Of a stretch of 64,000 bases of DNA, positions 1,581 to 36,306 are shown in pieces. How positions within the stretch are numbered: the first letter of the stretch is position 1; each line of letters starts with the position of its first letter. The translations under genes and the position numbers were made by a program. The notes under the pieces were generated by a model. That model ran no database searches, had not been told where the DNA came from, and was given only the letters and a program-made list of their open reading frames with translations. This DNA comes from Escherichia coli (GTDB lineage Bacteria > Pseudomonadota > Gammaproteobacteria > Enterobacterales > Enterobacteriaceae): NCBI RefSeq assembly GCF_044324875.1, contig NZ_CP172185.1. One strand, written 5' to 3'.

Positions 1581-1595
1581 CAACGTGCGCTTTGT

Positions 1596-3140: not shown

Positions 3141-3242
3141 AGGGTATCGGGTCGCTGTTACCAACGCCCGCCTTCTGTTATTGGTATCGTCAGAGGTGTG
3201 CGCCGGAATAAATCCCCCGGCGCAGTAGCGTTTAGTCGCATT

Positions 3243-4598: not shown

Positions 4599-4880
4599 GC
4601 AGATCTCCTGGCTTGCTTGAATAACTTCATCATGGCAGGCGAATCTGCAGAAAACCTCCGGCTTCCAGGTTGAGCATTCCCATAAACTCAGATCCTACGT
4701 GAAGCATCAATAAATCTGAGTTTATGGGAATAAATTACCTGAAAAGCAGAGTTTTCGGCCTCATGATGCTCGGACGCTCCCCTCGCCGCTGTGGGAAGAG
4801 GGTGAAAACCGTGCTCCCACTCGCAGTCATCCTCCCTCACTCCTGCCATAATTCTGATATTCCAGGAAAGAGAGCCATCC
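4599..4880. promoter_or_regulatory. Divergent melR / melAB control region
   Basis: Non-coding spacer between divergently transcribed melA and melR; known from literature to carry MelR and CRP sites. Individual sites not mapped here. Confidence 0.5.
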
Positions 4881-5789
4881 ATGAATACAGATACGTTTAT
4901 GTGCAGCAGCGACGAAAAACAGACCCGCAGCCCGCTGTCGCTGTATTCGGAATACCAGCGGATGGAGATTGAGTTTCGCGCACCGCATATCATGCCCACC
5001 AGCCACTGGCATGGCCAGGTCGAAGTGAATGTGCCTTTCGATGGCGATGTGGAATACCTGATCAACAATGGAAAAGTGAATATCAATCAGGGTCATATCA
5101 CGCTGTTCTGGGCCTGTACACCGCACCAACTAACAGATACAGGAACCTGTCAGAGCATGGCGATTTTTAATCTGCCGATGCATCTGTTTCTCTCCTGGCC
5201 GCTGGATAAAGACCTGATTAACCACGTCACTCACGGCATGGTGATCAAATCACTGGCCACACAGCAACTTAGCCCGTTTGAAGTGCGCCGCTGGCAGCAG
5301 GAATTGAACAGTCCGAACGAGCAAATTCGCCAGCTCGCCATTGATGAAATTGGCCTGATGCTCAAGCGATTTAGCCTCTCTGGCTGGGAACCGATTCTGG
5401 TCAATAAAACCTCGCGCACACACAAAAACAGCGTCTCGCGCCATGCGCAATTTTATGTTAGCCAGATGCTGGGCTTTATTGCCGAAAACTATGATCAGGC
5501 GCTGACCATCAACGATGTGGCTGAGCACGTCAAACTTAACGCCAACTATGCAATGGGGATATTCCAGCGGGTCATGCAATTGACGATGAAACAGTACATA
5601 ACCGCGATGCGCATCAACCACGTTCGCGCGTTACTGAGCGATACCGATAAAAGTATTCTCGATATTGCCCTGACGGCAGGCTTTCGTTCAAGTAGTCGTT
5701 TTTACAGCACGTTCGGCAAATATGTCGGCATGTCGCCGCAACAATACCGCAAACTTAGCCAACAGCGCCGCCAGACGTTTCCCGGCTAA
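4881..5789 (+). CDS. melR: AraC-family melibiose operon activator
   Basis: 302 aa; C-terminal AraC-type HTH region (…ITAMRINHVRALLSDTDKSILDIALTAGFRSSSRFYSTF…). Confidence 0.9.
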   Translation: MNTDTFMCSSDEKQTRSPLSLYSEYQRMEIEFRAPHIMPTSHWHGQVEVNVPFDGDVEYLINNGKVNINQGHITLFWACTPHQLTDTGTCQSMAIFNLPMHLFLSWPLDKDLINHVTHGMVIKSLATQQLSPFEVRRWQQELNSPNEQIRQLAIDEIGLMLKRFSLSGWEPILVNKTSRTHKNSVSRHAQFYVSQMLGFIAENYDQALTINDVAEHVKLNANYAMGIFQRVMQLTMKQYITAMRINHVRALLSDTDKSILDIALTAGFRSSSRFYSTFGKYVGMSPQQYRKLSQQRRQTFPG

Positions 5790-5984
5790 AGACGATATCA
5801 GTATCAGCCAAAAAAATAGTTTAGCCGTCGATAATAAGCAGTGAAAATAATTTAAAATAATCACATAACATATTGTTTATAAAAACAAATATTTCAAAAA
5901 TGTTTGTTTTTCACGCGCTTTACAGCCCGAAAAGGCCGGAAGATACTTGCCCGCAACGAAGATTCCTTCATAACCGGGTAAGCA

Positions 5985-8255
5985 ATGATGAAAGTATTAA
6001 TTGTTGAAAGCGAGTTTCTCCATCAAGACACCTGGGTCGGTAACGCCGTTGAGCGTCTGGCAGATGCTTTAAGCCAGCAAAATGTTACCGTGATTAAATC
6101 CACCTCCTTTGATGATGGTTTTGCCATTCTCTCTTCAAACGAAGCCATTGACTGCCTGATGTTCAGCTATCAAATGGAACATCCGGACGAACATCAAAAC
6201 GTCAGACAATTGATCGGTAAGCTTCATGAGCGCCAACAAAACGTGCCGGTCTTCCTGTTGGGCGATCGGGAAAAAGCCCTCGCCGCAATGGACCGGGATC
6301 TGCTGGAGCTTGTCGATGAATTCGCCTGGATTCTGGAAGATACCGCCGACTTTATCGCCGGACGCGCCGTTGCCGCGATGACCCGCTACCGCCAGCAACT
6401 GTTGCCGCCACTGTTCAGCGCGCTGATGAAATATAGCGACATCCATGAATATTCCTGGGCAGCGCCAGGCCACCAGGGCGGCGTTGGTTTTACCAAAACA
6501 CCCGCCGGACGTTTCTACCATGACTACTATGGTGAAAATCTGTTCCGCACCGACATGGGCATCGAACGAACTTCCCTCGGTTCTTTGCTTGACCATACTG
6601 GCGCATTTGGCGAAAGCGAAAAATATGCTGCACGCGTATTTGGTGCCGATCGCTCCTGGTCGGTAGTCGTCGGTACTTCCGGCTCTAACCGCACCATCAT
6701 GCAGGCTTGCATGACCGATAACGATATCGTGGTCGTTGACCGTAACTGCCATAAATCCATCGAACAAGGCTTGATGCTGACAGGCGCGAAACCGGTCTAC
6801 ATGGTGCCAAGCCGCAACCGCTATGGCATTATCGGGCCAATCTATCCGCAGGAAATGCAACCTGAAACCTTGCAGAAGAAAATCAGTGAAAGCCCGCTGA
6901 CTAAAGACAAAGCCGGGCAAAAACCGTCTTACTGCGTAGTGACCAACTGTACCTATGACGGCGTGTGTTATAACGCTAAAGAAGCGCAGGATCTGCTGGA
7001 AAAAACCTCCGATCGTCTGCACTTTGACGAAGCCTGGTACGGCTATGCACGTTTCAACCCGATCTATGCCGATCACTATGCCATGCGCGGCGAACCTGGC
7101 GATCACAACGGTCCTACCGTTTTCGCCACCCACTCCACCCACAAACTGCTGAATGCGCTGTCACAGGCCTCTTATATTCATGTACGTGAAGGTCGTGGGG
7201 CGATTAACTTCTCCCGCTTCAACCAGGCCTACATGATGCATGCCACCACCTCCCCGCTGTATGCCATCTGCGCATCCAACGACGTGGCGGTGTCGATGAT
7301 GGACGGCAACAGCGGCCTGTCACTGACGCAGGAAGTGATCGACGAAGCGGTTGATTTCCGTCAGGCGATGGCGCGACTGTATAAAGAGTTCACCGCTGAC
7401 GGTAGCTGGTTCTTCAAACCGTGGAACAAAGAAGTCGTCACCGACCCACAAACCGGCAAAACCTATGACTTTGCTGACGCACCAACCAAACTGCTGACCA
7501 CCGTTCAGGACTGCTGGGTCATGCATCCGGGCGAAAGCTGGCACGGCTTCAAAGATATTCCGGATAACTGGAGTATGCTCGACCCGATTAAAGTCAGCAT
7601 CCTTGCTCCGGGAATGGGTGAAGATGGTGAACTGGAAGAAACCGGCGTTCCAGCGGCGCTGGTCACTGCCTGGCTTGGTCGCCACGGCATTGTGCCTACC
7701 CGCACCACTGACTTCCAAATTATGTTCCTGTTCTCTATGGGCGTAACCCGTGGGAAATGGGGGACTCTGGTTAACACCCTTTGCTCCTTCAAACGCCACT
7801 ATGACGCCAACACACCGCTGGCGCAGGTGATGCCGGAACTTGTTGAACAATATCCTGACACTTACGCGAACATGGGGATTCACGATCTGGGTGACACCAT
7901 GTTTGCCTGGCTGAAAGAAAACAACCCTGGCGCACGGTTGAACGAAGCCTATTCCGGCCTACCGGTGGCGGAAATCACCCCGCGAGAAGCGTACAACGCG
8001 ATTGTCGACAACAATGTCGAACTGGTATCCATTGAAAACCTACCAGGACGCATCGCGGCAAACTCAGTTATCCCGTATCCGCCAGGAATCCCGATGCTGC
8101 TGTCTGGTGAAAACTTCGGCGATAAAAACAGTCCGCAAGTAAGTTATTTACGCTCGCTGCAATCCTGGGACCATCATTTCCCTGGATTTGAACACGAAAC
8201 TGAAGGGACTGAAATTATTGACGGTATTTACCACGTTATGTGTGTGAAAGCGTAA
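5985..8255 (+). CDS. adiA: Biodegradative (acid-inducible) arginine decarboxylase, PLP-dependent
   Basis: 756 aa; N-terminal wing domain MKVLIVESEF..., PLP-lysine context FATHSTHKLLNALSQAS. Start may be the second ATG at 5988. Confidence 0.95.
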   Translation: MMKVLIVESEFLHQDTWVGNAVERLADALSQQNVTVIKSTSFDDGFAILSSNEAIDCLMFSYQMEHPDEHQNVRQLIGKLHERQQNVPVFLLGDREKALAAMDRDLLELVDEFAWILEDTADFIAGRAVAAMTRYRQQLLPPLFSALMKYSDIHEYSWAAPGHQGGVGFTKTPAGRFYHDYYGENLFRTDMGIERTSLGSLLDHTGAFGESEKYAARVFGADRSWSVVVGTSGSNRTIMQACMTDNDIVVVDRNCHKSIEQGLMLTGAKPVYMVPSRNRYGIIGPIYPQEMQPETLQKKISESPLTKDKAGQKPSYCVVTNCTYDGVCYNAKEAQDLLEKTSDRLHFDEAWYGYARFNPIYADHYAMRGEPGDHNGPTVFATHSTHKLLNALSQASYIHVREGRGAINFSRFNQAYMMHATTSPLYAICASNDVAVSMMDGNSGLSLTQEVIDEAVDFRQAMARLYKEFTADGSWFFKPWNKEVVTDPQTGKTYDFADAPTKLLTTVQDCWVMHPGESWHGFKDIPDNWSMLDPIKVSILAPGMGEDGELEETGVPAALVTAWLGRHGIVPTRTTDFQIMFLFSMGVTRGKWGTLVNTLCSFKRHYDANTPLAQVMPELVEQYPDTYANMGIHDLGDTMFAWLKENNPGARLNEAYSGLPVAEITPREAYNAIVDNNVELVSIENLPGRIAANSVIPYPPGIPMLLSGENFGDKNSPQVSYLRSLQSWDHHFPGFEHETEGTEIIDGIYHVMCVKA

Positions 8256-8579
8256 CCACTATTCCGCTGAAGGCGTAATTGTTTAAATAACATTACGCCG
8301 CCTGGCCTTAGGCCTTTTGAGTATGGCAACGTTTTCATAAAAATTGCTGCAAACAAAAATGTCATACTTTTTGCGCGGCCCCATCCCGCGCTTTTTTTTG
8401 CCTGTTATTTACCCTGTAAAAAAATATGTACATGAGAAATTACTATAAAAATTTGTAATATTAGTAAAACTCGTTATTTTTATGCATGTTTATATTCATC
8501 ATACAATTATATAACCATTTCCCGGTATCGCTTTGCTTTAGCGAGAACTGGTCTTTTATTCGCACTCAGGAGTACATGT

Positions 8580-9341
8580 ATGAGGATTTGCAGCGACCAA
8601 CCTTGTATTGTTTTATTGACTGAAAAAGATGTCTGGATAAGGGTGAATGGGAAAGAACCTATTAGCCTTAAAGCTAACCATATGGCGTTATTAAATTGTG
8701 AAAATAATATTATCGACGTCTCCTCTCTTAATAACACTTTGGTTGCTCATATTAGTCACGACATCATCAAAGATTACCTCCGGTTTCTGAATAAAGATCT
8801 CTCGCAAATACCAGTATGGCAACGTAGCGCTACGCCCATCCTCACCCTGCCATGCCTGACGCCAGACGTCTTTCGCGTTGCCGCGCAACATAGCATGATG
8901 CCCGCTGAAACTGAGTCAGAAAAGGAACGAACACGTGCATTATTATTCACTGTGCTATCCCGTTTTCTCGACAGTAAAAAATTCCTTTCATTAATGATGT
9001 ATATGTTACGTAATTGTGTAAGTGACAGCGTTTATCAAATTATTGAAAGCGATATCCACAAAGACTGGAATCTTAGTATGGTAGCCAGTTGTTTATGTCT
9101 TAGCCCAAGTCTGTTAAAGAAAAAGCTGAAAAGCGAAAACACCAGTTATAGCCAAATAATCACCACCTGCCGCATGCGTTATGCCGTCAATGAATTAATG
9201 ATGGACGGTAAAAATATCTCTCAGGTATCACAATCCTGCGGCTACAACAGTACGTCGTACTTTATTTCTGTCTTTAAAGACTTCTACGGTATGACGCCTC
9301 TGCATTATGTTAGTCAGCACAGAGAACGCACTGTCGCCTGA
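8580..9341 (+). CDS. adiY: AraC-family regulator of the adi system
   Basis: 253 aa, AT-rich gene, C-terminal AraC HTH; located between adiA and adiC. Confidence 0.9.
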   Translation: MRICSDQPCIVLLTEKDVWIRVNGKEPISLKANHMALLNCENNIIDVSSLNNTLVAHISHDIIKDYLRFLNKDLSQIPVWQRSATPILTLPCLTPDVFRVAAQHSMMPAETESEKERTRALLFTVLSRFLDSKKFLSLMMYMLRNCVSDSVYQIIESDIHKDWNLSMVASCLCLSPSLLKKKLKSENTSYSQIITTCRMRYAVNELMMDGKNISQVSQSCGYNSTSYFISVFKDFYGMTPLHYVSQHRERTVA

Positions 9342-9477
9342 TTTTTAACCTTAACGAAGAGCTATATTAATAACGGCATCAGCGATAACCCGGTCGATAA
9401 TAATTCAACTATCGAATGCAGGCGTATGATATGACGTAATTTATTGTCACGAAGCTCGCCTTCGCGGGAGTTTAATT

Positions 9478-10815
9478 ATGTCTTCGGATGCTGATGCTCA
9501 CAAAGTGGGCTTAATCCCCGTCACCCTGATGGTGTCGGGGAATATTATGGGGTCAGGTGTTTTTCTGTTACCTGCAAACCTGGCCTCTACTGGCGGGATT
9601 GCCATTTATGGATGGTTGGTGACGATTATCGGTGCGCTGGGGCTCTCGATGGTATACGCCAAAATGTCGTTCCTCGACCCAAGTCCTGGTGGTTCTTACG
9701 CTTACGCCCGCCGCTGCTTTGGGCCGTTTCTCGGTTATCAAACCAACGTCCTCTACTGGCTGGCCTGCTGGATCGGCAATATCGCCATGGTGGTCATTGG
9801 CGTAGGATATTTAAGTTACTTCTTCCCGATTCTGAAAGATCCACTGGTATTAACCATCACCTGCGTCGTGGTGCTGTGGATCTTCGTCCTGCTGAACATT
9901 GTCGGTCCGAAAATGATCACCCGTGTGCAGGCCGTTGCCACCGTGCTGGCGCTGATCCCCATCGTCGGGATTGCCGTATTTGGCTGGTTCTGGTTCCGTG
10001 GTGAAACCTATATGGCGGCATGGAACGTCAGCGGCCTGGGCACCTTCGGCGCGATTCAAAGTACCCTTAACGTTACGCTGTGGTCGTTCATCGGTGTGGA
10101 AAGTGCCTCCGTTGCCGCAGGTGTGGTGAAAAACCCGAAACGCAACGTCCCTATCGCCACCATTGGTGGGGTATTGATTGCCGCCGTTTGCTATGTGCTC
10201 TCCACCACCGCGATTATGGGGATGATCCCTAATGCCGCACTGCGCGTTTCTGCCTCGCCATTCGGTGATGCCGCACGGATGGCGTTGGGTGACACCGCCG
10301 GGGCCATTGTTTCCTTCTGCGCAGCTGCGGGTTGCTTAGGTTCACTGGGCGGCTGGACGTTGCTGGCGGGTCAAACGGCGAAAGCCGCTGCCGATGACGG
10401 ACTGTTCCCACCGATTTTTGCCCGTGTAAATAAAGCGGGTACGCCAGTGGCAGGGCTGATTATCGTCGGTATTTTGATGACCATCTTCCAGCTCAGTAGC
10501 ATTTCGCCAAACGCGACCAAAGAATTCGGTCTGGTGTCTTCCGTGTCGGTCATCTTTACACTGGTGCCATATCTTTACACCTGTGCGGCATTACTGCTGC
10601 TCGGCCACGGTCACTTTGGTAAAGCACGCCCGGCATACCTGGCAGTTACTACCATTGCCTTCCTCTACTGCATCTGGGCCGTAGTAGGGTCCGGCGCAAA
10701 AGAGGTTATGTGGTCATTTGTCACTCTGATGGTAATCACCGCCATGTATGCGCTGAATTACAACCGGCTGCATAAAAACCCGTATCCCTTAGATGCACCA
10801 ATAAGCAAAGATTAA
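9478..10815 (+). CDS. adiC: Arginine:agmatine antiporter (APC superfamily)
   Basis: 445 aa polytopic membrane protein, N-terminus [36 protein letters not shown] recognised as AdiC. Confidence 0.95.
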
Positions 10816-10918: not shown

Positions 10919-12562
10919 ATGTTGAAGCGCCTACTAAAAAGACCCTCTTTGAATTTACTCGCCTGGCTATTGTTGGCCGCTTTTTATATCTCTATCTGCC
11001 TGAATATTGCCTTTTTTAAACAGGTGTTGCAGGCGCTGCCGCTGGACTCGCTGCATAACGTACTGGTTTTCTTGTCGATGCCGGTCGTCGCCTTCAGCGT
11101 GATTAATATTGTCCTGACACTAAGCTCTTTCTTATGGCTTAATCGACCGCTGGCCTGCCTGTTTATTCTGGTCGGCGCGGCTGCACAATATTTCATAATG
11201 ACTTACGGCATCGTCATCGACCGCTCGATGATTGCCAATATTATTGATACCACTCCGGCAGAAAGTTATGCGTTGATGACGCCGCAAATGTTATTAACGC
11301 TGGGATTCAGCGGCGTGCTTGCTGCGCTGATTGCCTGCTGGATTAAAATCAAACCTGCCACCTCGCACCTGCGCAGTGTTCTTTTCCGTGGAGCCAATAT
11401 TCTGGTGTCTGTACTGCTGATTTTGCTGGTCGCCGCACTGTTTTATAAAGACTACGCCTCATTGTTCCGCAACAACAAAGAGCTGGTGAAGTCCTTAAGC
11501 CCCTCTAACAGCATTGTTGCCAGCTGGTCATGGTACTCCCATCAGCGACTGGCAAATCTGCCGCTGGTGCGAATTGGTGAAGATGCGCACCGCAACCCAT
11601 TAATGCAGAACGAGACACGTAAAAATTTGACCATCCTGATTGTCGGCGAAACCTCGCGGGCGGAGAACTTCTCCCTCAATGGCTATCCGCGTGAAACTAA
11701 CCCGCGGCTGGCAAAAGATAACGTGGTCTATTTCCCTAATACCGCATCTTGCGGCACGGCAACGGCAGTTTCAGTACCGTGCATGTTCTCGGATATGCCG
11801 CGTGAGCACTACAAAGAAGAGCTGGCACAGCACCAGGAAGGCGTGCTGGATATCATTCAGCGAGCGGGCATCAACGTGCTGTGGAATGACAACGATGGCG
11901 GCTGTAAAGGTGCCTGCGACCGCGTGCCTCACCAGAACGTCACCGCGCTGAATCTGCCTGGTCAGTGCATCAACGGCGAATGCTATGACGAAGTGCTGTT
12001 CCACGGGCTGGAAGAGTACATCAATAACCTGCAGGGTGATGGCGTGATTGTCTTACACACCATCGGCAGCCACGGTCCGACCTATTACAACCGCTATCCG
12101 CCGCAGTTCAGGAAATTTACCCCAACCTGCGACACTAACGAGATCCAGACCTGTACCAAAGAGCAACTGGTGAACACTTACGACAACACGCTGGTTTACG
12201 TCGACTATATTGTTGATAAAGCGATTAATCTGCTGAAAGAACATCAGGATAAATTTACCACCAGCCTGGTTTATCTTTCTGACCACGGTGAGTCGTTAGG
12301 TGAAAATGGCATCTATCTGCACGGTCTGCCTTATGCCATCGCCCCGGATAGCCAAAAACAGGTGCCAATGCTGCTGTGGCTGTCGGAGGATTATCAAAAA
12401 CGGTATCAGGTTGACCAGAACTGCCTGCAAAAACAGGCGCAAACGCAACACTATTCACAAGATAATTTATTCTCCACGCTATTGGGATTAACTGGCGTTG
12501 AGACGAAGTATTACCAGGCTGCGGATGATATTCTGCAAACTTGCAGGAGAGTGAGTGAATGA
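10919..12562 (+). CDS. eptA: Lipid A phosphoethanolamine transferase
   Basis: 547 aa; N-terminal TM helices plus sulfatase-like periplasmic domain; start chosen at ATG 10919 ([12 protein letters not shown]...), ORF track begins upstream at an alternative codon. Stop overlaps basR start. Confidence 0.9.
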
Positions 12563-17149: not shown

Positions 17150-19374
17150 TATCGTTCTGCCGTGAAAAGTGTTTGAATATCATCGCGTAACAGCTGAGCG
17201 TCGGTATAAATCCAGCTGTGAGTCATCACAGTCTGCTGCAATTGCTGCTGCATCAGCCTGACCACCGATTCATTTTGTTGACGCAGAGCCAGGCTTTCGC
17301 GTAAACGCGTCTGTAATTCCGTCAAACATGAAGCGAACTCAGCGAAAAAAGTATTCATGCCTGCCGTAACAGATTCATCGACCTGCTCTGCCAGAACTTT
17401 AGCCATTTGTTGGCAATAAAGATCGACTTCTGCGCTTAATGCTCGTTGCAACACACTGTAATCAACCGTCTCTGTCGGGGATTTCTCATTTCCCCGTCCC
17501 CAGTCGGGCTGATTCAACCAGCGCGAAAAAGTCTCACGCACAACGCCTAAACGCGTGCTCTGCTCGTCCGTTGCTTCCTGGCGCGAAATGACTTCACTGA
17601 ACAGCTGGCGAGTGTTGAAGTGGGGAACTGCGCCGTGAAAAACAGGAAAATGAAACCCAGGACGAAACCCTGACTCGCTCAATTCCATTTTGATTTGTTG
17701 CTCAATGGGGCGAATAACATCGGTTAACACCCGGCAAAGGGTGGATTCCAGCTCGGCAAAACGCAGCGTAAAGTCGCGACTAATGGTGTTCTGCGCCGTC
17801 TGTAACAGTGTCTCACAGCGGGTACGAATCTCGCTTAACGGCTCCGAATCATCCTGAAACAAGGCGGCTAACTGCGCATTCAGCGCATCTTGCTGTTGAC
17901 GCAGAAAGTGGTTGGCGGAGGTCAGGGCCAGCTCGATTTCATGTTTAATCTCGCCGCTCACCTGCGCCTGATTGAGTTGCAATAGCTGCAAACTTTCTTC
18001 GATCTGATGGATATTTTGCCGCAATTGTTCACAAGCGACGTTTAACCCGTGCGCACGAAAATCCAGGTATTCCCGCGCCTGCTGCGCGTAATTCAACAGT
18101 TTATGCGCGGCAGATCGCAGAGCATACAACGAGGCGTTAGCGTAAGCGGCATGAAGCAACGCCTGAATTGGCTGGGCGAACAGCGAATCTTCCCACAACT
18201 GATCGGCAGCATGACGAATATGTTCGAGGTCAGCCAGATCGGCATGACGCCAGCGCCTGCCGAGCGCGGCATGGGCAAAATCTTCCACCCAGCGTTGTTG
18301 CTCTGGCGGTGGTAACTTACCGTTGTTGGCTAACTCATGGCGCGCCCGATTCGCCAGGTAGCCCCACATCGACGACACCGGAAATATCTGCTGTGGCGTA
18401 ATACAGCCTTTCATCAGCGTCCCGGAAATCAGTGCCCGCACCTGGTCGGCGTCGTCACTGTTACGATCCTGTTGATCGAACTTATTGACCAGCACATACA
18501 GCGGCACCGATTGCCCCACCGCCAAAATCGCCTCACGGACCTCTTCATCGGAGATCGATTTCAGTTGCGTATAATCCAGCACTGCCAGTACCGCCGAGGC
18601 GCGTGCCAGCTGCTGGTTAAGCATTTTTTGCAGATGCGGTTGCCCGGCTTCATTTGGCCCGGGGGTATCCAGTAACGTCAACTGACCGGGATAACTCTCC
18701 AGCCCCGCCAGATGGACAAACTCCACTTCAATCACGGGAATATGCTCAATGGCGGCGTAAGCAGAAAAAGGAAAATCGACGTCCAGCGCCTTCGCCAGTC
18801 GCACCAAATCATTCAAACTTTTCAGACAATGAAAAATAGGCTGGGCACCCAGATAATATTTTTCGAAAGCGACGCCATTTTCGATCCGCTGCATAAGCGC
18901 ACGCATATCTTTATCTATTTCCAGCACATCGGTCAGATGCTTAATATCGCAATCACGCAGGCGCTGTTGTAATTTTTGAATTAAACAATCGATTGGCGCG
19001 ACATGTGAAAAATGCAGTACCGGTTCCTTTTGCCCGGGCGTATGGCGAATAAGCGTCGGCAGCGCAGTCATTGGGCGATTACGATTAGGCAAAACCTCCG
19101 TACCAACAATGGCATTAATGGTGGTTGATTTCCCTGCTTTCATGGTACCGACAATCGCCAGCACCATTTCCAGTCGGGAAATTTTACGCAACTCATTATT
19201 CAGCATCGCGTGACGTTCGGCGATATTAGGCTGACTCCAGGGTAAAGCCAGTTGTGGCGCATCGTCTCCGGGGACAGAGAGAGGCATTTTTTCCAGTAAC
19301 TGCAACTGTTGGCGAGAAAGCTGTAACAGGCGTTCAGCCTCCTGACTTAACTCATACAGGGTCTGTGTGTACAT
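17146..19374 (-). CDS. crfC: Dynamin-like GTPase (CrfC/YjdA)
   Basis: 742 aa; P-loop GTMKAGKST, long coiled-coil-rich C-terminal region. Confidence 0.85.
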   Translation of the reverse strand: MYTQTLYELSQEAERLLQLSRQQLQLLEKMPLSVPGDDAPQLALPWSQPNIAERHAMLNNELRKISRLEMVLAIVGTMKAGKSTTINAIVGTEVLPNRNRPMTALPTLIRHTPGQKEPVLHFSHVAPIDCLIQKLQQRLRDCDIKHLTDVLEIDKDMRALMQRIENGVAFEKYYLGAQPIFHCLKSLNDLVRLAKALDVDFPFSAYAAIEHIPVIEVEFVHLAGLESYPGQLTLLDTPGPNEAGQPHLQKMLNQQLARASAVLAVLDYTQLKSISDEEVREAILAVGQSVPLYVLVNKFDQQDRNSDDADQVRALISGTLMKGCITPQQIFPVSSMWGYLANRARHELANNGKLPPPEQQRWVEDFAHAALGRRWRHADLADLEHIRHAADQLWEDSLFAQPIQALLHAAYANASLYALRSAAHKLLNYAQQAREYLDFRAHGLNVACEQLRQNIHQIEESLQLLQLNQAQVSGEIKHEIELALTSANHFLRQQQDALNAQLAALFQDDSEPLSEIRTRCETLLQTAQNTISRDFTLRFAELESTLCRVLTDVIRPIEQQIKMELSESGFRPGFHFPVFHGAVPHFNTRQLFSEVISRQEATDEQSTRLGVVRETFSRWLNQPDWGRGNEKSPTETVDYSVLQRALSAEVDLYCQQMAKVLAEQVDESVTAGMNTFFAEFASCLTELQTRLRESLALRQQNESVVRLMQQQLQQTVMTHSWIYTDAQLLRDDIQTLFTAERY

Positions 19375-27998: not shown

Positions 27999-28003
27999 GC
28001 CAG

Positions 28004-28088
28004 TGCCGGATACGGCGTAAACGCCTTATCCGGCCGACAAATGCGCTCCCCGTAGGTCGGATAAGACGCGTCAGCGTCGCATCCGACA
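28004..28088. repeat. REP/BIME inside the phn operon (phnK-phnL spacer)
   Basis: gccggatacggcgtaaacgccttatccggcc … gtcggataagacgcgtcagcgtcgcatccgac. Confidence 0.6.
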
Positions 28089-28108
28089 CCCGAACCACGA
28101 GGCGAAAA

Positions 28109-28789
28109 ATGATTAACGTACAAAACGTCAGTAAAACCTTCATCCTGCACCAGCAAAACGGCGTGCGCCTGCCCGTCTTACAACGTGCCTCGCTCACCGT
28201 CAACGCAGGCGAATGCGTGGTGCTTCACGGCCACTCCGGCAGCGGAAAATCAACCCTGCTGCGCTCGCTGTACGCCAACTATCTGCCCGATGAAGGTCAA
28301 ATCCAGATCAAACACGGTGATGAGTGGGTAGACCTGATCACCGCGCCAGCCCGCAAAGTGGTGGAGATCCGCAAAACCACCATCGGCTGGGTGAGCCAGT
28401 TTCTGCGCGTCATCCCGCGTATTTCGGCACTGGAAGTGGTGATGCAGCCTCTGCTCGATACCGGCGTACCGCGTGAAGCCTGCGCCGCTAAAGCCGCCCG
28501 ATTACTGACGCGCCTGAACGTGCCTGAACGCCTGTGGCACCTGGCACCATCGACCTTCTCCGGCGGCGAACAGCAGCGCGTCAACATCGCCCGTGGCTTT
28601 ATCGTCGACTATCCGATTCTGCTGCTGGATGAACCCACCGCCTCGCTGGACGCTAAAAACAGCGCCGCGGTGGTGGAACTCATTCGCGAAGCCAAAGCCC
28701 GTGGCGCGGCCATCGTCGGTATCTTCCATGACGAAGCCGTACGCAATGACGTCGCCGACCGCCTGCACCCGATGGGAGCCTCTTCATGA
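28109..28789 (+). CDS. phnL: C-P lyase associated ABC-type ATPase
   Basis: 226 aa from ATG 28109 ([11 protein letters not shown]…), Walker [10 protein letters not shown]. Confidence 0.9.
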
Positions 28790-29922
28790 TTATCAATAAC
28801 GTCAAACTGGTGCTGGAAAACGAAGTGGTGCACGGTTCACTGGAGGTGCAGGATGGCGAAATCCGCGCCTTTGCCGAAAGCCAGAGCCGCCAGCCGGAAG
28901 CGATGGACGGCGAAGGTGGCTGGCTACTGCCCGGACTGATTGAGCTGCATACCGACAACCTCGATAAATTCTTCACCCCGCGCCCGAAAGTTGACTGGCC
29001 TGCCCACTCGGCGATGAGCAGCCACGACGCGCTGATGGTGGCAAGCGGCATCACCACCGTACTGGACGCGGTGGCGATTGGCGACGTGCGCGACGGCGGC
29101 GATCGGCTGGAGAATCTGGAGAAGATGATCAACGCCATCGAAGAGACGCAGAAACGCGGCGTCAACCGCGCCGAGCACCGCCTGCACCTGCGCTGCGAAC
29201 TGCCGCACCACACCACGTTGCCGCTGTTTGAAAAACTGGTGCAGCGCGAACCTGTGACGCTGGTATCGCTGATGGACCACTCGCCAGGCCAGCGCCAGTT
29301 CGCCAATCGCGAGAAGTATCGCGAATATTATCAGGGCAAATATTCCCTCACCGATGCGCAGATGCAGCAGTACGAAGAAGAGCAATTGGCGCTCGCCGCA
29401 CGCTGGTCGCAGCCAAATCGCGAAACCATCGCCGCAATGTGCCGCGCGCGATACATTGCGCTCGCCAGCCACGATGACGCCACGCACGCCCACGTTGCCG
29501 AATCCCACCAGCTTGGCAGCGTGATTGCCGAATTTCCCACCACGTTCGAAGCGGCAGAAGCCTCGCGCAAGCATGGCATGAACGTGCTGATGGGCGCGCC
29601 GAATATCGTGCGCGGCGGTTCGCACTCCGGCAACGTGGCGGCCAGTGAACTGGCGCAGCTTGGCCTGCTGGATATCCTCTCTTCCGACTACTACCCCGCC
29701 AGCCTGCTCGATGCGGCATTTCGCGTCGCCGATGACGAGAGCAACCGCTTTACGCTGCCGCAGGCGGTGAAGCTGGTGACTAAAAATCCGGCGCAGGCGC
29801 TTAATCTTCAGGATCGCGGAGTGATTGGCGAGGGCAAACGCGCCGACCTGGTGCTGGCGCATCGCAAGGGCAACCACATTCATATCGACCACGTCTGGCG
29901 TCAGGGTAAAAGGGTGTTCTGA
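28786..29922 (+). CDS. phnM: Amidohydrolase-fold PhnM (ribosyl-triphosphate 1-phosphonate diphosphohydrolase)
   Basis: 378 aa; metal-binding HTDN motif near N-terminus. Confidence 0.9.
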
Positions 29923-30479
29923 TGACGGGAAAACTGATTTGGTTAATGGGGGCCTCTGGCTCCGGAAAAGACAGTCTGTTGACGGAACTTCGCCAGCGGG
30001 AACAAACTCAGCTACTGGTAGCGCATCGCTACATCACGCGCGCCGCCAGCGCCGGAAGTGAAAACCATATCGCCCTGAGCGAGCAGGAGTTTTTTACCCG
30101 CGCGGGGCAGAACCTTCTGGCCTTAAGCTGGCACGCTAACGGTCTGTATTATGGCGTCGGCGTCGAGATTGACCTCTGGCTGCACGCCGGATTCGACGTG
30201 CTGGTCAACGGCTCACGCGCGCATTTGCCGCAGGCACGGGCGCGCTATCAATCGGCGCTGTTGCCCGTTTGTTTACAGGTTTCGCCGGAGATCCTGCGCC
30301 AGCGCCTGGAAAACCGTGGTCGTGAAAATGCCAGTGAAATTAACGCCCGACTGGCACGCGCTGCCCGCTATACTCCTCAGGATTGTCTTACGCTCAATAA
30401 TGACGGCAGCCTGCGCCAGTCGGTCGACAAGCTGCTGACGCTGATTCATCAGAAGGAGAAACACCATGCCTGCTTGTGA
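29922..30479 (+). CDS. phnN: Ribose 1,5-bisphosphate phosphokinase
   Basis: 185 aa; P-loop GASGSGKDS. Confidence 0.9.
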
Positions 30480-30900
30480 GCTTCGCCCGGCTACGCAGTA
30501 CGACACCGACGCAGTTTACGCGCTGATTTGTGAGCTAAAACAGGCGGAGTTTGACCACCACGCGTTTCGCGTGGGCTTTAACGCCAACCTGCGCGACCCA
30601 AACATGCGCTACCATCTGGCGCTACTGGATGGCGAAGTTGTCGGCATGATCGGCCTGCATTTGCAGTTTCATCTGCATCATGTCAACTGGATCGGCGAAA
30701 TTCAGGAACTGGTGGTGATGCCGCAGGCGCGCGGTCTGAACATCGGCAGTAAATTACTGGCATGGGCAGAAGAAGAAGCCCGCCAGGCCGGGGCCGAAAT
30801 GACCGAGCTTTCGACCAACGTGAAGCGCCACGACGCGCACCGTTTCTATCTGCGCGAAGGCTACGAGCAGAGCCATTTCCGCTTCACCAAGGCGCTGTAA
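30466..30900 (+). CDS. phnO: GNAT aminoalkylphosphonate N-acetyltransferase
   Basis: 144 aa GNAT fold (…[26 protein letters not shown]…). Confidence 0.9.
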
Positions 30901-30901
30901 C

Positions 30902-31660
30902 ATGAGCCTGACCCTCACACTTACTGGCACTGGCGGCGCACAGGGCGTTCCCGCATGGGGCTGTGAGTGCGCGGCCTGCGCCAGAGCGCGGCGCTCACCG
31001 CAGTATCGCCGCCAGCCATGCAGCGGCGTCGTGAAGTTTAACGACGCGATCACCCTGATCGACGCCGGGCTGCACGATCTCGCCGATCGCTGGTCGCCCG
31101 GATCGTTCCAGCAGTTTTTGCTGACGCACTACCATATGGATCACGTGCAGGGGCTGTTTCCGCTGCGCTGGGGCGTGGGCGATTCGATCCCGGTCTACGG
31201 CCCGCCGGATGAACAGGGCTGCGACGATCTGTTTAAACATCCGGGCCTGCTTGATTTCAGCCACACGGTGGAACCGTTTGTAGTGTTTGATTTGCAGGGA
31301 TTACAGGTCACGCCGCTGCCGCTCAATCATTCGAAACTCACTTTCGGCTATTTACTGGAAACGGCACATAGCCGGGTGGCGTGGCTGTCTGACACCGCAG
31401 GCCTGCCGGAAAAAACGCTGAAATTTTTACGCAATAATCAGCCACAGGTAATGGTGATTGATTGCAGCCACCCACCGCGCGAGGATGCACCGCGTAATCA
31501 CTGTGATTTAAATACCGTGCTTGCGCTGAATCAGGTTATCCGCTCGCCACGGGTGATTCTGACCCATATCAGCCACCAGTTTGATGCGTGGCTGATGGAA
31601 AACGCACTGCCGTCGGGGTTTGAGGCGGGGTTTGATGGGATGGAGATTGGGGTGGCGTGA
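30902..31660 (+). CDS. phnP: Metallo-beta-lactamase-fold phosphodiesterase
   Basis: 252 aa; HYHMDH metal-binding motif. Confidence 0.9.
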
Positions 31661-31682
31661 TGGGAGGGAATGTGCGCGCTGG

Positions 31683-31797
31683 CCCCCTCACCCTAACCCT
31701 CTCCCCAGAGGGGCGAGGGGACCGATTGTGCTCGATATTGAATATTGCGCTGGTTTTCTCCCTCGCCCCATTGGGGAGAGGGCCGGGGTGAGAGGCG
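31683..31797. repeat. GC-rich composite inverted repeat (boxC-like) between convergent phnP and yjdP
   Basis: Arm A ccccctcaccctaaccctctccccagaggggcgagggga (31683-31721) and arm B tctccctcgccccattggggagagggccggggtgagagg (31757-31797) are near reverse complements, separated by about 35 bp containing a short AT palindrome. Confidence 0.5.
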
Positions 31798-31818
31798 ATG
31801 CCTGCTCCATACCCAACA

Positions 31819-32148
31819 TCAACGCCCATACTCATCTTCCATTCTCCGCTCTTCATCTTCTAGCTGCCGACGCTCCTGATCCAGCTGGCGCTGGCGATCG
31901 TCCAGCTGCCTGCGGCGATCTTCAAACTGGCGGCGGCGATCGTCATATTGTCTGCGCCGATCGTCGTTCACTTCACGCTGCCAGCCGTCGTCGCGCGAAT
32001 CTTCATAGTCTCGCCCACGGTCAGGGTTATAAGCGTCGTTAATCGCCTGCTGAATATTGCCAATGGTGTCGTCGATAATATCGGCCTGGGCCGGAACGGT
32101 GGACAGCGTGAGCAGGGTGAATAAAAGAAATAGCGGAAAGCGTTTCAT
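31819..32148 (-). CDS. yjdP: Small secreted protein YjdP with periodic acidic/basic repeats
   Basis: 109 aa; N-terminal signal peptide MKRFPLFLLFTLLTLSTVPAQA followed by repeats of the DDRRRQ type; degenerate 24-bp DNA periodicity visible. Confidence 0.8.
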   Translation of the reverse strand: MKRFPLFLLFTLLTLSTVPAQADIIDDTIGNIQQAINDAYNPDRGRDYEDSRDDGWQREVNDDRRRQYDDRRRQFEDRRRQLDDRQRQLDQERRQLEDEERRMEDEYGR

Positions 32149-32216
32149 TAGCCAACCTCAAAAAGAAACTCTATCCACATTAGTCATTACTCATCCATGC
32201 AAGTAGTGGATGAATC

Positions 32217-32534
32217 TCAATTTCTCCGCTGCTCTATTGCCGTAATCGCCTCCACGCGTTGTTGATGACGACCGCCTTCGTACTGCGCGCCCAGCCACGC
32301 ATCCACAATCATTTTTGCCAGTTCGAGGCCAACCACTCGTGAACCAAAAGCCAGTGCAACTTCACTGGCGTAATGCGGATAATCAGTACGCTCTGACGAC
32401 CTGGTTTCTTTATCAATCCCCTCACTCATTGACCATGAATAAAAGGCTGGCACAGCAACGCAGAATCCTGCGGTGCCAGCGACATGACCGCCCATTGCTC
32501 CGGTACGTTTTTTAATAAAAAACACCGGTTGCAT
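32217..32534 (-). pseudogene. rpiB: Truncated ribose-5-phosphate isomerase B remnant
   Basis: C-terminal ~46 residues (AFGSRVVGLELAKMIVDAWLGAQYEGGRHQQRVEAITAIEQRRN) and the SSERTDYPHYAS segment match RpiB as I recall it, but the central catalytic region (ICGTGVG… block) is missing and the N-terminal 40 residues are not recognisable. Confidence 0.6.
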
Positions 32535-32786
32535 TGATTAATTGTGCTCAGTATTTGCCGAAGTACAATATATATAATAAATATATAAAACACCTCATAT
32601 TATTTACAGAGATAATAAATTCGCGTACTTTTCCCTCTTCAGCACAAATGCCTAATAAAATGGCTCGCTCCGCTCACACTTCCACTTATTAAAGTCGCAA
32701 ATTCCCAATTATGATAACGCCAGCTTTAAATGACGTATTTTGCATGGATTACATATTTACGACACAAATGATAAATGGAGATTTAT

Positions 32787-34772
32787 ATGAATAACTCTCG
32801 GTTATTCCGTTTGAGCAGGATTGTTATTGCGTTAACTGCCGCCAGCGGCATGATGGTAAATACCGCTTACGCAACAGATGAAGCGAAAGCCGCCACTCAA
32901 TATACCCAACAGGTTAATCAGAATTACGCCAAATCATTACCGTTTAGCGATCGTCAGGATTTTGACGATGCCCAGCGTGGATTTATCGCCCCGCTGCTGG
33001 ATGAAGGTATTCTGCGTGATGCGAACGGTAAAGTTTACTACCGCGCAGACGATTACAAATTTGATATTAATGCCGCTGCGCCGGAAACCGTAAACCCCAG
33101 CCTGTGGCGTCAGTCGCAAATCAACGGTATTTCTGGCCTGTTCAAAGTCACCGATAAAATGTATCAGGTGCGCGGCCAGGATATCTCTAACATTACGTTC
33201 GTTGAGGGCGAGAAAGGCATTATTGTTATCGACCCGCTGGTGACGCCGCCTGCCGCAAAAGCCGCACTTGATCTTTACTTCCAGCATCGTCCGCAAAAAC
33301 CGATTGTTGCTGTGATTTACACCCACAGCCACGCCGACCATTATGGCGGTGTGAAAGGCATTATCTCTGAAGCGGATGTTAAATCCGGCAAAGTGCAGGT
33401 GATCGCTCCGGCAGGCTTTATGGACGAAGCCATCAGCGAAAACGTGCTGGCGGGTAACATCATGAGCCGCCGTGCGCTCTACTCTTACGGTCTGTTACTG
33501 CCGCACAACGCGCAAGGCAACGTGGGCAACGGCCTGGGCGTGACGCTGGCAACCGGCGACCCGAGCATTATTGCACCGACTAAAACTATCGTCAGAACTG
33601 GCGAGAAGATGATTATCGACGGCCTGGAATTTGACTTCCTGATGACTCCGGGTAGCGAAGCGCCAGCCGAAATGCACTTCTATATTCCGGCCCTGAAAGC
33701 CCTGTGTACCGCCGAGAACGCCACGCATACCCTGCACAACTTCTACACTCTGCGCGGCGCGAAAACCCGCGATACCAGCAAGTGGACCGAGTACCTGAAC
33801 GAAACGCTGGATATGTGGGGTAACGACGCGGAAGTACTGTTTATGCCGCACACCTGGCCGGTCTGGGGCAATAAGCATATCAATGATTATATTGGTAAAT
33901 ATCGCGATACTATCAAGTACATTCACGACCAGACCCTGCACCTGGCGAACCAGGGCTACACCATGAATGAAATCGGCGACATGATTAAGCTGCCGCCTGC
34001 GCTTGCCAATAACTGGGCCAGCCGCGGCTATTACGGTTCTGTCAGCCACAACGCCCGCGCGGTGTATAACTTCTATCTTGGCTATTACGACGGTAACCCG
34101 GCTAACCTACATCCGTATGGTCAGGTGGAGATGGGTAAACGTTACGTGAAAGCGCTGGGCGGTTCTGCCCGCGTCATCAACCTGGCGCAAGAAGCGAACA
34201 AGCAAGGTGATTACCGTTGGTCGGCAGAACTGCTGAAACAGGTGATTGCCGCCAACCCTGGTGACCAGGTCGCGAAGAATCTGCAAGCGAATAACTTTGA
34301 ACAGCTGGGCTATCAGGCCGAGTCCGCCACCTGGCGCGGTTTCTACCTGACCGGCGCGAAAGAGCTGCGCGAAGGGGTGCATAAATTCAACCACGGCACC
34401 ACCGGTTCCCCGGACACCCTTCGCGGAATGTCGGTCGAAATGCTGTTCGACTTTATGTCCGTTCGCCTCGATAGTGCGAAAGCCGCGGGTAAAAATATCA
34501 GCCTGAACTTCAATATGAGCAACGGCGATAACCTCAACCTGACGCTGAACGATAGCGTGCTTAACTACCGTAAAACGCTGCAACCGCAAGCCGACGCCTC
34601 TTTCTACATCAGCCGTGAAGATCTGCATGCCGTGCTGACCGGACAAGTCAAAATAGTGGATCTGGTAAAAGCGAAGAAAGCCAAAATTATTGGCAATGGC
34701 GCGAAACTGGAAGAAATTATTGCCTGTCTGGATAATTTCGATTTGTGGGTGAATATCGTAACCCCAAATTAA
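32787..34772 (+). CDS. yjcS: MBL-fold alkyl/aryl sulfatase (SdsA1-like)
   Basis: 661 aa; signal peptide, THSHADH zinc motif, SCP2-like C-terminus; start set at second ATG (MNNSRLFRL…). Confidence 0.9.
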
Positions 34773-34980
34773 TGCCACTCACTTTTGGGGGCGCTTAAGC
34801 CCTCAAAAGCATTTATTTTAAAAATACATACAACAAATTAATACATAAAATATATAAGTTATGAATGCGGTGGCTGAATAAAGCTATTTTTATTCATCGA
34901 GAAAATAGCCATACTGACGCCTTCAATGGATATTGATATTCACTACAGATATTGTTCGCAGCAGACAGGATGTATTTAAT

Positions 34981-35256
34981 ATGCCAACAGTTCTCTCTCG
35001 CATGGCGATGCAACTCAAAAAAACAGCCTGGATAATTCCCGTCTTCATGGTTTCGGGATGCTCATTATCTCCGGCAATCCCGGTGATCGGCGCTTATTAT
35101 CCCAGCTGGTTTTTCTGCGCCATTGCCAGCCTTATTTTGACGCTCATCACGAGGCGAATTATTCAGCGGGCACATATCAATCTGGCATTTGTCGGAATTA
35201 TTTATACCGCCCTTTTTGCTCTCTACGCCATGCTGTTCTGGTTGGCATTTTTCTAA
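34981..35256 (+). CDS. ytcA: Small lipoprotein/membrane protein YtcA
   Basis: 91 aa from ATG 34981; lipobox-like MVSGCSL followed by TM helices; immediately upstream of mdtN. Confidence 0.8.
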   Translation: MPTVLSRMAMQLKKTAWIIPVFMVSGCSLSPAIPVIGAYYPSWFFCAIASLILTLITRRIIQRAHINLAFVGIIYTALFALYAMLFWLAFF

Positions 35257-35274
35257 TCTATTTGAGACGCGCTC

Positions 35275-36306
35275 ATGGAAAGTACGCCGAAAAAAGCTCC
35301 TCGCAGTAAATTCCCTGCTCTGTTAGTGGTTGCGTTGGCGCTGGTTGCCCTTGTTTTCGTTATCTGGCGCGTAGACAGTGCGCCATCAACTAATGACGCT
35401 TACGCGTCAGCAGATACCATTGATGTGGTGCCGGAAGTCAGCGGTCGCATTGTAGAACTGGCGGTCACCGACAACCAGGCGGTGAAACAGGGCGATTTGC
35501 TGTTCCGCATCGACCCGCGCCCGTACGAAGCCAATCTGGCGAAAGCCGAAGCCTCCCTCGCGGCGCTGGATAAGCAAATTATGCTCACCCAGCGTAGCGT
35601 TGACGCACAACAGTTTGGTGCCGACTCGGTTAATGCCACGGTAGAAAAAGCCCGTGCCGCTGCAAAACAGGCCAGCGATACATTACGCCGCACCGAGCCA
35701 TTACTGAAAGAAGGTTTTGTTTCTGCGGAAGAGGTTGACCGTGCAAGAACGGCGCAGCGCGCCGCAGAAGCCGATCTTAACGCCGTTTTATTACAGGCGC
35801 AGTCAGCCGCCAGCGCCGTCAGCGGCGTGGATGCATTAGTTGCCCAGCGTGCGGCAGTGGAAGCGGATATTGCGTTGACCAAACTGCATCTGGAAATGGC
35901 GACCGTTCGCGCGCCGTTTGATGGCCGGGTCATTTCCCTCAAAACCTCCGTCGGGCAATTTGCTTCTGCCATGCGCCCTATTTTCACCCTAATCGACACT
36001 CGTCACTGGTACGTGATCGCCAATTTCCGCGAAACTGATCTGAAAAATATTCGCTCAGGTACACCCGCAACGATTCGCCTGATGAGCGACAGCGGCAAAA
36101 CCTTCGAGGGTAAAGTGGATTCGATTGGCTACGGCGTGCTACCGGATGACGGCGGTCTGGTGCTGGGCGGCCTGCCGAAAGTGTCGCGTTCTATTAACTG
36201 GGTCCGCGTTGCCCAGCGTTTTCCGGTCAAAATCATGGTTGATAAACCTGACCCGGAAATGTTCCGCATCGGCGCTTCGGCAGTCGCTAATCTTGAGCCG
36301 CAATAA
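35275..36306 (+). CDS. mdtN: Efflux pump membrane fusion protein (HlyD family)
   Basis: 343 aa; N-terminal TM anchor and coiled-coil region; first gene of mdtNOP. Confidence 0.9.
   Translation: MESTPKKAPRSKFPALLVVALALVALVFVIWRVDSAPSTNDAYASADTIDVVPEVSGRIVELAVTDNQAVKQGDLLFRIDPRPYEANLAKAEASLAALDKQIMLTQRSVDAQQFGADSVNATVEKARAAAKQASDTLRRTEPLLKEGFVSAEEVDRARTAQRAAEADLNAVLLQAQSAASAVSGVDALVAQRAAVEADIALTKLHLEMATVRAPFDGRVISLKTSVGQFASAMRPIFTLIDTRHWYVIANFRETDLKNIRSGTPATIRLMSDSGKTFEGKVDSIGYGVLPDDGGLVLGGLPKVSRSINWVRVAQRFPVKIMVDKPDPEMFRIGASAVANLEPQ

Follow-up and report, generated by a model that had tools for sequence, protein, structure and literature searches.

Remains of rpiB and alsK between yjdP and yjcS in Escherichia coli: a probable two-segment deletion scar of the D-allose locus

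Organization of the yjdP–yjcS interval

The window analysed here is a 64-kb stretch (64,000 nucleotides) of the Escherichia coli contig NZ_CP172185.1 (assembly GCF_044324875.1). Within it, yjdP and yjcS are separated by 638 bp (32149–32786), as against the ~7.3 kb expected with the als locus in place. The K-12 D-allose regulon comprises rpiB/alsI, alsR/rpiR and alsBACEK (Kim et al. 1997 and Poulsen et al. 1999, cited in PMC2808357). An earlier note on this DNA had given a K-12 gene order with rpiB–alsK between yjdP and yjcS, and had claimed that the als operon is absent from an interval of ~640 bp that holds a 105-codon ORF. This order is correct against the K-12 locus, and tblastn with the K-12 Als proteins finds none of alsR, alsB, alsA, alsC, alsE and alsK in the interval or anywhere in the 64-kb window, where the sole matches to the als queries are generic ABC-ATPase paralogues of 25–30% identity. 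The O157-type island that occupies this site in other strains is likewise absent from the 64-kb window. The features of the locus are as follows.

31819–32148, minus strand: yjdP (DDRRRQL-repeat protein), left flank, intact; ORF list, 99% identity to K-12 YjdP by tblastn
32149–32216, no strand: rpiB–yjdP spacer, 68 bp; site alignment of K-12, O157, CUWW06, Pluralibacter and Kluyvera
32217–32534, minus strand: 105-codon chimeric ORF, rpiB remnant; ORF list, RefSeq annotation, BLASTP, Pfam
32220–32348, minus strand: rpiB 3' segment, ORF codons 63–105; 99.2% DNA identity to K-12
32349–32354, minus strand: junction 1, single kept copy of CTGGCT, 159 bp (RpiB 54–106) lost; overlap of BLAST blocks at 32345–32354, junction alignments
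32349–32423, minus strand: rpiB middle segment, ORF codons 38–62; 92–94% DNA identity to als+ alleles
32419–32424, no strand: junction 2, rpiB codon 28–29 fused to the last ~6 alsK codons; BLAST blocks, alignments
32419–32484, plus strand: alsK 3' end remnant with the last codons, stop codon and downstream hairpin; BLAST, alignment
32485–32562, no strand: 77–78 bp specific to the compact haplotype, holding the start codon of the ORF and another hairpin; fold z-score -3.0
32563–32786, no strand: AT-rich spacer preceding yjcS; aligned at 93.4% identity with K-12 and at 93.2% with O157
32787–34772, plus strand: yjcS (alkyl sulfatase), right flank, intact; ORF list, 98.3% identity to K-12 YjcS over 661 aa

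The variable cassette has sharp edges. yjdP is annotated at the site in all related genomes compared, and the conserved motif TAGTGGATGAATCTCAA (~32205–32221) at the end of its spacer marks the left edge in all aligned states, including an empty site in Kluyvera; the same TCA serves as the stop codon of rpiB and of the kinase gene of the O157-type island. On the right, the AT-rich spacer is common to all states and the cassette edge falls at ATATATATAATAAA. The divergence of this flank (6.6%) is only mildly elevated because the whole window is 3–6% diverged from K-12, and a deep, locally divergent haplotype was rejected on the same grounds. No known RNA families were found in the interval; the RNA family search returned sub-threshold miRNA-like matches only for an inverted repeat at 31660–31816. 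In comparison locus L008, the ORF at 9178–9612 was considered as PhnO and rejected, the phnO fragment lying further right (~9640–9780).

RpiB content of the ORF and the two junctions

BLASTP aligns the ORF to K-12 RpiB with E = 2e-35. Its residues 63–105 match RpiB 107–149 at 43 of 43 positions and residues 38–62 correspond to RpiB 29–53, leaving an in-frame gap of 53 residues (RpiB 54–106). Residues 1–37 have no RpiB counterpart, and RpiB 1–28, which form the native N-terminal strand and loop, are gone. The earlier note had described just this arrangement, with an RpiB-like C-terminal half, a central catalytic block lost in frame and an N-terminus of other origin. It had also allowed that the ORF might prove to be a full-length gene of another family. 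Pfam instead matches LacAB_rpiB (PF02502) with confidence over no more than the final 37 of its 138 positions (102–138, E = 6e-9), with a weak match at positions 27–49 (E = 1.7) and none at 1–26 and 50–101, so that no complete domain is present. Cys66 is the catalytic base of RpiB, and an H99N mutant shows a 26-fold loss in kcat (PMC4783025); both Cys66 and His99 (E. coli numbering) lie within the deleted residues 54–106.

At the DNA level, four collinear BLAST blocks are found between the interval and K-12, and their order and orientation are those of the parent genes. Window positions 32100–32354 correspond to 11301–11555 of the K-12 locus (L001) at 99.2% identity, and 32345–32418 to L001 11705–11778 at 91.9%. 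The latter block, a 74-bp island within rpiB, has diverged and carries three radical non-synonymous changes, G34E, W36R and Q50E. The two blocks overlap at CTGGCT (32349–32354), so the loss at junction 1 is exactly 159 bp and in frame. In K-12 rpiB this hexamer occurs only twice, at L001 11550–11555 and 11709–11714, 159 bp apart. The lost segment is thus bounded by a short direct repeat of which one copy is kept, as had been suggested for this motif. At junction 2, ~6.56 kb is missing (L001 11779–18341), and at most 2–4 bp of overlap is possible as microhomology, blurred by divergence.

The alsK remnant and the compact-specific segment

The remainder of the ORF, residues 1–37, is read from the antisense strand of the last alsK codons, the hairpin that follows alsK and the 77 bp of unique DNA. 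The alsK remnant is collinear with K-12 (BLAST E = 7e-5) and with a divergent Escherichia (L010, E = 7e-4). Its identity to each of the als+ alleles sampled is 76–79%, though the alsK genes of E. coli share 95% identity or more. The hairpin folds at -24.1 and -21.3 kcal/mol, and a compensatory change from T·A to C·G preserves its stem. No better source for 32419–32562 was found among the als loci of Citrobacter, Enterobacter and Salmonella, and the alsK tail has no match better than 76–79% among E. coli, other Escherichia, Salmonella arizonae, Kluyvera, Citrobacter and Pluralibacter.

The adjacent 77 bp has no match in the other states or in the outgroups, including all 5,426 complete E. coli genomes. 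A resemblance to the rpiB–alsR intergenic region amounts to 13 bp of AT-rich sequence out of order, which 16 of 500 shuffles equal, and is treated as chance. Since the 77 bp has no source, either the immediate parent allele has not been sampled or a simple pair of deletions does not tell the whole history.

Distribution in E. coli and outgroups

A junction-spanning sequence of 181 bp was searched at a threshold of at least 95% identity against 5,426 complete E. coli genomes. The identical scar is present in 1,568–1,575 of them (~29%; phylogroups A, B1 and D), all with one junction sequence, and the same search did not find the junction DNA outside these genomes. The als operon, represented by alsK, is present in 3,380 of the 5,426 genomes, and 411 carry the different, O157-type sugar island at the same site. 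The check for rpiA that had been proposed finds this gene in 5,425 of the 5,426. Secondary changes at the scar are seen in strain 7CC, where an IS1 element precedes the ORF by 32 bp, and in strain BS-04, which has a further deletion.

Outside E. coli, E. whittamii and another divergent Escherichia (L010) have als at this site, as do Citrobacter and Enterobacter. In the latter two genera both islands occur in tandem, and C. freundii, C. koseri and E. soli show the arrangement yjdP–rpiB–alsRBACEK–hybrid kinase–ABC. Two Kluyvera loci (L014, L015) have a truly empty yjdP–yjcS site with neither rpiB nor alsK sequence.

A 158-aa form of the protein (P0002 cluster), which combines junction 2 with an intact central block, was considered as a deletion intermediate and rejected as a probable chimeric assembly. 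All its occurrences are in ENA metagenome assemblies, which stem from at least eight samples; none of the 5,426 complete genomes has it. Contig by contig, the upstream part matches differing scar alleles and the central block differing als+ alleles, and the switch always falls within a ~36-bp stretch that is identical in both haplotypes.

Origin of the interval

We interpret 32217–32562 as the scar, no longer functional, left when the D-allose locus (rpiB–alsRBACEK) lost two segments, and assign this reading a probability of about 0.92. An ancestor with rpiB–alsRBACEK between yjdP and yjcS would have lost ~6.56 kb, from rpiB codon 28–29 to ~6 codons before the alsK stop, probably through an illegitimate join with a few bases of microhomology at most. 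The 159 bp inside rpiB may have been removed by slippage or by microhomology-mediated deletion between the CTGGCT repeats. The leftover pieces give a 105-codon open frame by chance, its first 37 codons being the antisense of DNA that had been non-coding. The scar, with one junction sequence in its carriers, probably arose once, and homologous recombination in the conserved flanks may have carried it across phylogroups.

A variant of this history starts from a parent that carried als and the O157-type island in tandem. The 77 bp would be a leftover of the right-hand spacer of the second island, and the K-12, O157 and compact states would be three alternative deletion products of a single ancestor. 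Such tandems exist in C. freundii, C. koseri and E. soli, both boundaries are common to all E. coli states, and the right half of the 77 bp is weakly similar to the spacer that, in the O157-type island, separates the response-regulator gene from yjcS. This similarity is marginal, however, with 22 of 500 shuffles scoring equally well, and the 77 bp was accordingly rejected as a leftover of that spacer. Furthermore, the tandem loci contain no match to window positions 32419–32562, and no tandem came up in E. coli during the searches for the scar, alsK and the O157-type island. We regard a tandem parent as unlikely.

Coding potential of the ORF

A second alternative holds that the 105-aa product is a retained small protein, in which a hydrophobic N-terminus born from antisense sequence is joined to the C-terminal helices of RpiB and serves a role other than isomerization. 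The main allele classes keep an open frame of 105 codons. It occurs in ~1,570 genomes spread over several phylogroups, its main protein cluster comprises 912 sequences, and RefSeq/PGAP calls a protein CDS rather than a pseudogene. Between two scar alleles, the RpiB-derived codons show 0 non-synonymous and 3 synonymous differences, a small sample drawn from two alleles. One of the three synonymous differences is also polymorphic in intact rpiB alleles, and may therefore have been imported by recombination.

Other observations speak against a retained product. The RpiB part lacks the catalytic block and the first 28 residues. In the non-RpiB codons the same two alleles show 4 non-synonymous and 0 synonymous differences, a ratio that becomes ~4:3 when SNPs from metagenome contigs are counted, as expected without constraint. 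Length variants from 89 to 128 aa arise through many frameshifts and indels, and the IS1 insertion directly upstream is tolerated. A consensus scan of 32100–32850 finds no sigma-70 promoter, direct reading of the sequence finds no Shine-Dalgarno motif before the ATG, and the coding strand has, within the ORF, hairpins that run into U-tracts. The ORF shows no sign of function and is best read as a pseudogene, one that is probably not expressed; its retention as a small protein appears improbable.

A broader proposal joins both alternatives. It treats the yjdP/yjcS slot as a cassette site with fixed boundaries at which als, the O157-type island and the scar are alternative resolutions of an ancestral tandem that Citrobacter and Enterobacter still have, and it takes the 105-codon frame to be kept as a fusion micro-protein whose N-terminus derives from the antisense of a terminator-like hairpin. 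Such a combination likewise has little likelihood.

Discussion

The deletion scar was one of two possibilities raised in the earlier note, the other being an ancestral empty site. Under the latter, the als island was inserted later in K-12-like strains and the 105-codon ORF is the older state. A strain-variable hotspot with sharp boundaries common to all states might be read this way, and Kluyvera does show an empty yjdP–yjcS site. Yet the interval contains two separate rpiB pieces together with the alsK tail and hairpin, all in K-12 order, and insertion cannot yield such a pattern. None of these sequences occurs at the truly empty Kluyvera site, and als occupies the same slot in divergent Escherichia, Citrobacter and Enterobacter. 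Of the two possibilities, the scar is therefore upheld and the empty site is very improbable. An assembly or sequencing artefact, such as a collapsed or mis-joined contig, has nothing specific in its favor, was considered since metagenome assemblies at this locus look chimeric, and is scarcely credible given the same junctions in 1,568–1,575 independently finished genomes.

Read as a deletion scar, the compact locus shares with the K-12 regulon its position between yjdP and yjcS, rpiB codons 29–53 and 107–149, and the last alsK codons with their hairpin. It differs in lacking the six als genes, the rpiB promoter region, and rpiB codons 1–28 and 54–106. Absence of als and failure to grow on allose have been reported for EAEC 042 (PMC2808357), W / ATCC 9637 (PMC3032704) and PCN033 (PMC4578781); the loss is the same as here and the expected phenotype is likewise allose-negative. 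PCN033 matches the whole 8-kb segment of the window in one piece and thus carries the same compact haplotype. The papers on these strains speak of a "complete absence" of the locus, and the two-junction rpiB/alsK scar and its chimeric ORF are not described there. We note that the loss of als is already published, and that the anatomy of the junctions and the tandem islands of Citrobacter and Enterobacter are the only additions made here. The scar is an ordinary presence/absence polymorphism, because it is found in ~29% of genomes and the gene loss has been documented before.

The O157:H7-type island fits this slot exactly, sharing its left motif and right boundary, and can be regarded as an alternative allele of the hotspot. 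Its content is unrelated and comprises a hybrid sensor kinase, a sugar ABC transporter, a D-lyxose/D-mannose isomerase, an aldolase, a kinase and a response regulator.

Two protein records, WP_001183287.1 and WP_001183282.1 (105 aa; strains HS and 7CC), represent the same ORF at the same position. They are named "RpiB/LacA/LacB family sugar-phosphate isomerase", which implies an enzyme, whereas the catalytic residues are deleted and only Pfam positions 102–138 of 138 are matched with confidence. As ~1,570 RefSeq genomes carry this label on a dead rpiB fragment, pan-genome and metabolic-model pipelines could count an RpiB that is not there. The 158-aa "intermediate", apparently a chimera of mixed strains, is a small warning for metagenomic protein mining. 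The scar explains a documented strain-variable trait, the lack of D-allose use. Judging from the published phenotypes, strains with the scar would be unable to catabolise D-allose, and their isomerisation of ribose-5-phosphate would rely on RpiA.

Structure of the yjdP–yjcS interval

Within the window, 638 bp separate yjdP from yjcS, matching the interval of about 640 bp with a 105-codon ORF that the earlier note had described from the sequence. The genes are arranged as follows.

up to 31660: phnN, phnO and phnP, the end of the phn operon
31819–32148, minus strand: yjdP
32217–32534, minus strand: the 105-codon ORF
32787–34772, plus strand: yjcS
beyond yjcS: ytcA, then mdtN

The K-12 locus (L001) carries rpiB, alsR, alsB, alsA, alsC, alsE and alsK in this interval, the gene set that the earlier note had listed. 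A blastn search of window 32100–32850 against L001 returns four collinear blocks.

Collinear blastn blocks between the window and the K-12 locus L001
Window; L001; identity; content
32100–32354; 11301–11555; 99.2%; yjdP start, 68-bp spacer, 3′ end of rpiB
32345–32418; 11705–11778; 91.9%; rpiB codons ~29–53
32433–32484; 18342–18393; 78.8% (E = 7e-5); alsK last codon, stop, hairpin downstream
32563–32850; 18395–18683; 93.4%; alsK–yjcS spacer and yjcS start

BLASTP aligns RpiB residues 29–53 with ORF residues 38–62, and RpiB 107–149 with ORF 63–105. RpiB 54–106 is absent and ORF 1–37 has no RpiB match, so the C-terminal RpiB match, the lost central catalytic block and the foreign N-terminus all hold as originally claimed. 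Of the 138 positions of the LacAB_rpiB model, Pfam matches the ORF only to 102–138 (E = 6e-9) and, weakly, to 27–49. Structures of E. coli RpiB are on record (1NN4, 2VVR), and its catalytic base Cys66 and His99 (PMC4783025) both fall inside the deleted block. A compensatory replacement of T·A by C·G keeps the hairpin 3′ of alsK conserved between K-12 and the scar. Between this hairpin and the common right boundary lie 77–78 bp (32485–32562) that supply the ORF start codon. This segment has no match outside the compact haplotype among the E. coli genomes, other states and outgroup als loci compared, and its resemblance to the spacer of the O157-type island, an alternative sugar island, is marginal at most.

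The window diverges from K-12 by 3–6% throughout, with phn genes at 92–97% identity. Across the 5,426 complete E. coli genomes, no match to 28000–36000 exceeds 98.2% over 8 kb, and the nearest strains are 7CC, 19KM1776, the phylogroup D strain PCN033 and an O7:H15 ST70 strain. Coverage by finished genomes is poor for the source lineage or, at a minimum, for this part of it. Two GC-rich repeats of ~45 bp, inverted relative to each other (…CCCTCACCCTAACCCTCTCCCC… / …GGGGAGAGGGCCGGGGTGAGAGG…), lie between phnP and yjdP at 31660–31816. They give 44-aa ORFs on either strand and sub-threshold miRNA-like Rfam matches, and resemble a common intergenic repeat of the REP/BIME type.

Deletion junctions

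Junction 1 is a 159-bp loss inside rpiB. The als+ alleles read …GCACTGGCT|GTTGCT…(159 bp)…AACGTGCTGGCT|TTTGGT, and the window reads GCACTGGCTTTTGGT. K-12 rpiB contains exactly two copies of CTGGCT, 159 bp apart, of which the window retains one (32349–32354), a pattern typical of deletion by slippage or microhomology; the earlier guess that this motif flanks the missing block was correct. The deletion also moved a native rpiB hairpin (GCCAGUG…CACUGGC) directly before UUUUGGUU, creating the sole terminator-like site that a consensus scan detects in the interval (32350–32369, minus strand).

Junction 2, at about 32419–32424, fuses rpiB codon 28–29 with alsK at about the sixth codon from its end, with a possible overlap of only 2–4 bp and about 6.56 kb missing (L001 11779–18341). 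With the als allele of a divergent Escherichia (L010), the alsK match reaches 32419–32487.

Deletion scar or ancestral empty site

The earlier note had proposed either a deletion scar or an ancestral empty site. With YjcS as anchor, the same site was located in other taxa. Kluyvera georgiana (L014) and Kluyvera genomosp. 3 (L015) are truly empty, with the order phnP–yjdP–~300 bp–yjcS and no rpiB or alsK sequence at the site. Escherichia whittamii (L009) and L010 carry the complete als locus. In Citrobacter freundii, C. koseri and Enterobacter soli (L080, L081 and L083, ~1–10450), rpiB–alsRBACEK adjoins yjdP and a hybrid-kinase/ABC island follows in tandem, while E. coli O157:H7 has the latter island alone. 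These states indicate that rpiB has long adjoined yjdP and that the compact form is derived. The empty-site reading fails, and the interval is a deletion scar.

A Pluralibacter MAG (L028, 942–6685) carries a different, independent rpiB truncation adjoining yjdP, followed by an IS1-like transposase fragment, a 1,478-aa autotransporter-like ORF, part of the O157-type island and yjcS. Escherichia sp. MOD1-EC7003 (L008, ~9640–9780) retains only the first ~56 phnO codons, fused directly to the common right boundary before yjcS; this larger deletion took the remainder of phnO, phnP, yjdP and the cassette.

The O157-type island (L007 847–9997, a slot equivalent to window 32220–32562) encodes a hybrid sensor kinase, ABC transporter, D-lyxose/D-mannose isomerase, aldolase, kinase and response regulator; it also occurs in Escherichia sp. 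E1V33 and partially in a Citrobacter. Given the tandem in other genera, a two-cassette ancestor could have given rise to the three E. coli states through alternative deletions. A motif, TAG(C/T)GGA(G/T)GAATCTCAA, is conserved in every state ~60 bp upstream of yjdP (window ~32205–32221; L014 ~9755–9775), and its version at the empty K. georgiana site, GGAGGAATCTCAATTCCTCC, is perfectly palindromic. One TCA within the motif serves as the stop codon of both rpiB and the O157-type kinase. The motif is a possible regulatory site of yjdP, one that would fix the left edge of the slot.

Distribution in E. coli

The scar junction is present in 1,575 of the 5,426 complete genomes, in two allele classes (467 at ≥99%, 1,105 at ~97%). 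alsK is found in 3,380 and the O157-type island in 411, leaving ~60 in other states by difference. The junction DNA was found nowhere besides these 1,575 genomes, a restriction that favours a single origin. Carriers of the scar include HS (phylogroup A), O111:H8 and PCN033 (D); als carriers include K-12 (A) and Nissle 1917. We infer that recombination through the conserved flanks carries the polymorphism across phylogroups. In strain 7CC an IS1 element has entered the scar haplotype 32 bp upstream of the ORF (L070 2268–2965), and in strain BS-04 (L071 2818–3305) a further deletion has left an ORF of 99 codons and a spacer of 188 bp.

At least eight metagenome assemblies (ENA contigs L072–L079), and 0 of 5,426 complete genomes, contain a 158-aa "RpiB" in which the scar N-terminus and junction 2 are combined with an intact central block. 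This form was considered as a true intermediate and rejected. The mixture of scar-type and als-type alleles varies among contigs, and the switch always falls within a ~36-bp stretch common to both haplotypes. The form is thus probably a chimeric assembly of co-resident mixed strains, and is unusable for ordering the two deletions.

Status of the 105-codon ORF

Nothing in the sequence suggests a living ORF. Essential parts of the RpiB fold are gone (BLASTP, Pfam). Codons 1–45 differ from the HS allele by four non-synonymous and no synonymous changes, the 74-bp rpiB island shows G34E, W36R and Q50E relative to intact alleles, and frameshifted or indel forms of 89–128 aa are numerous in public protein sets. 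That 7CC tolerates its IS1 insertion, and that BS-04 has lost further DNA, also counts against a living ORF. A consensus scan finds no sigma-70 promoter in the interval, and no Shine-Dalgarno motif precedes the ATG. On the ORF's own strand, a 13-bp hairpin with CUUUUAUU behind it lies within codons ~17–31, a second hairpin covers the start codon, and another, ahead of UUUUGG, arose through junction 1. The sole counter-signal is that the RpiB-derived codons show zero non-synonymous and three synonymous differences, numbers too small for a test; one of the three is a polymorphism that intact rpiB alleles also show and may therefore have come in by recombination.

Implications

The observation is confirmed and its interpretation supported, "deletion scar" being the right alternative. 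The state is a common presence/absence polymorphism that was already known: strain W (phylogroup B1) lacks alsBACEK and does not catabolize allose (PMC3032704), and PCN033 is without alsBACEK (PMC4578781). The earlier note had asked for a check of rpiA elsewhere; the gene, whose locus lies outside the window, is present in 5,425 of 5,426 genomes, and scar carriers thus keep the main isomerase. The analysis adds modestly to this: it gives the junctions at base level, shows that the slot has fixed boundaries and that als and a second island stand in tandem in other genera, and points to the likely mis-annotation of a dead rpiB fragment as an isomerase in ~1,570 RefSeq genomes.
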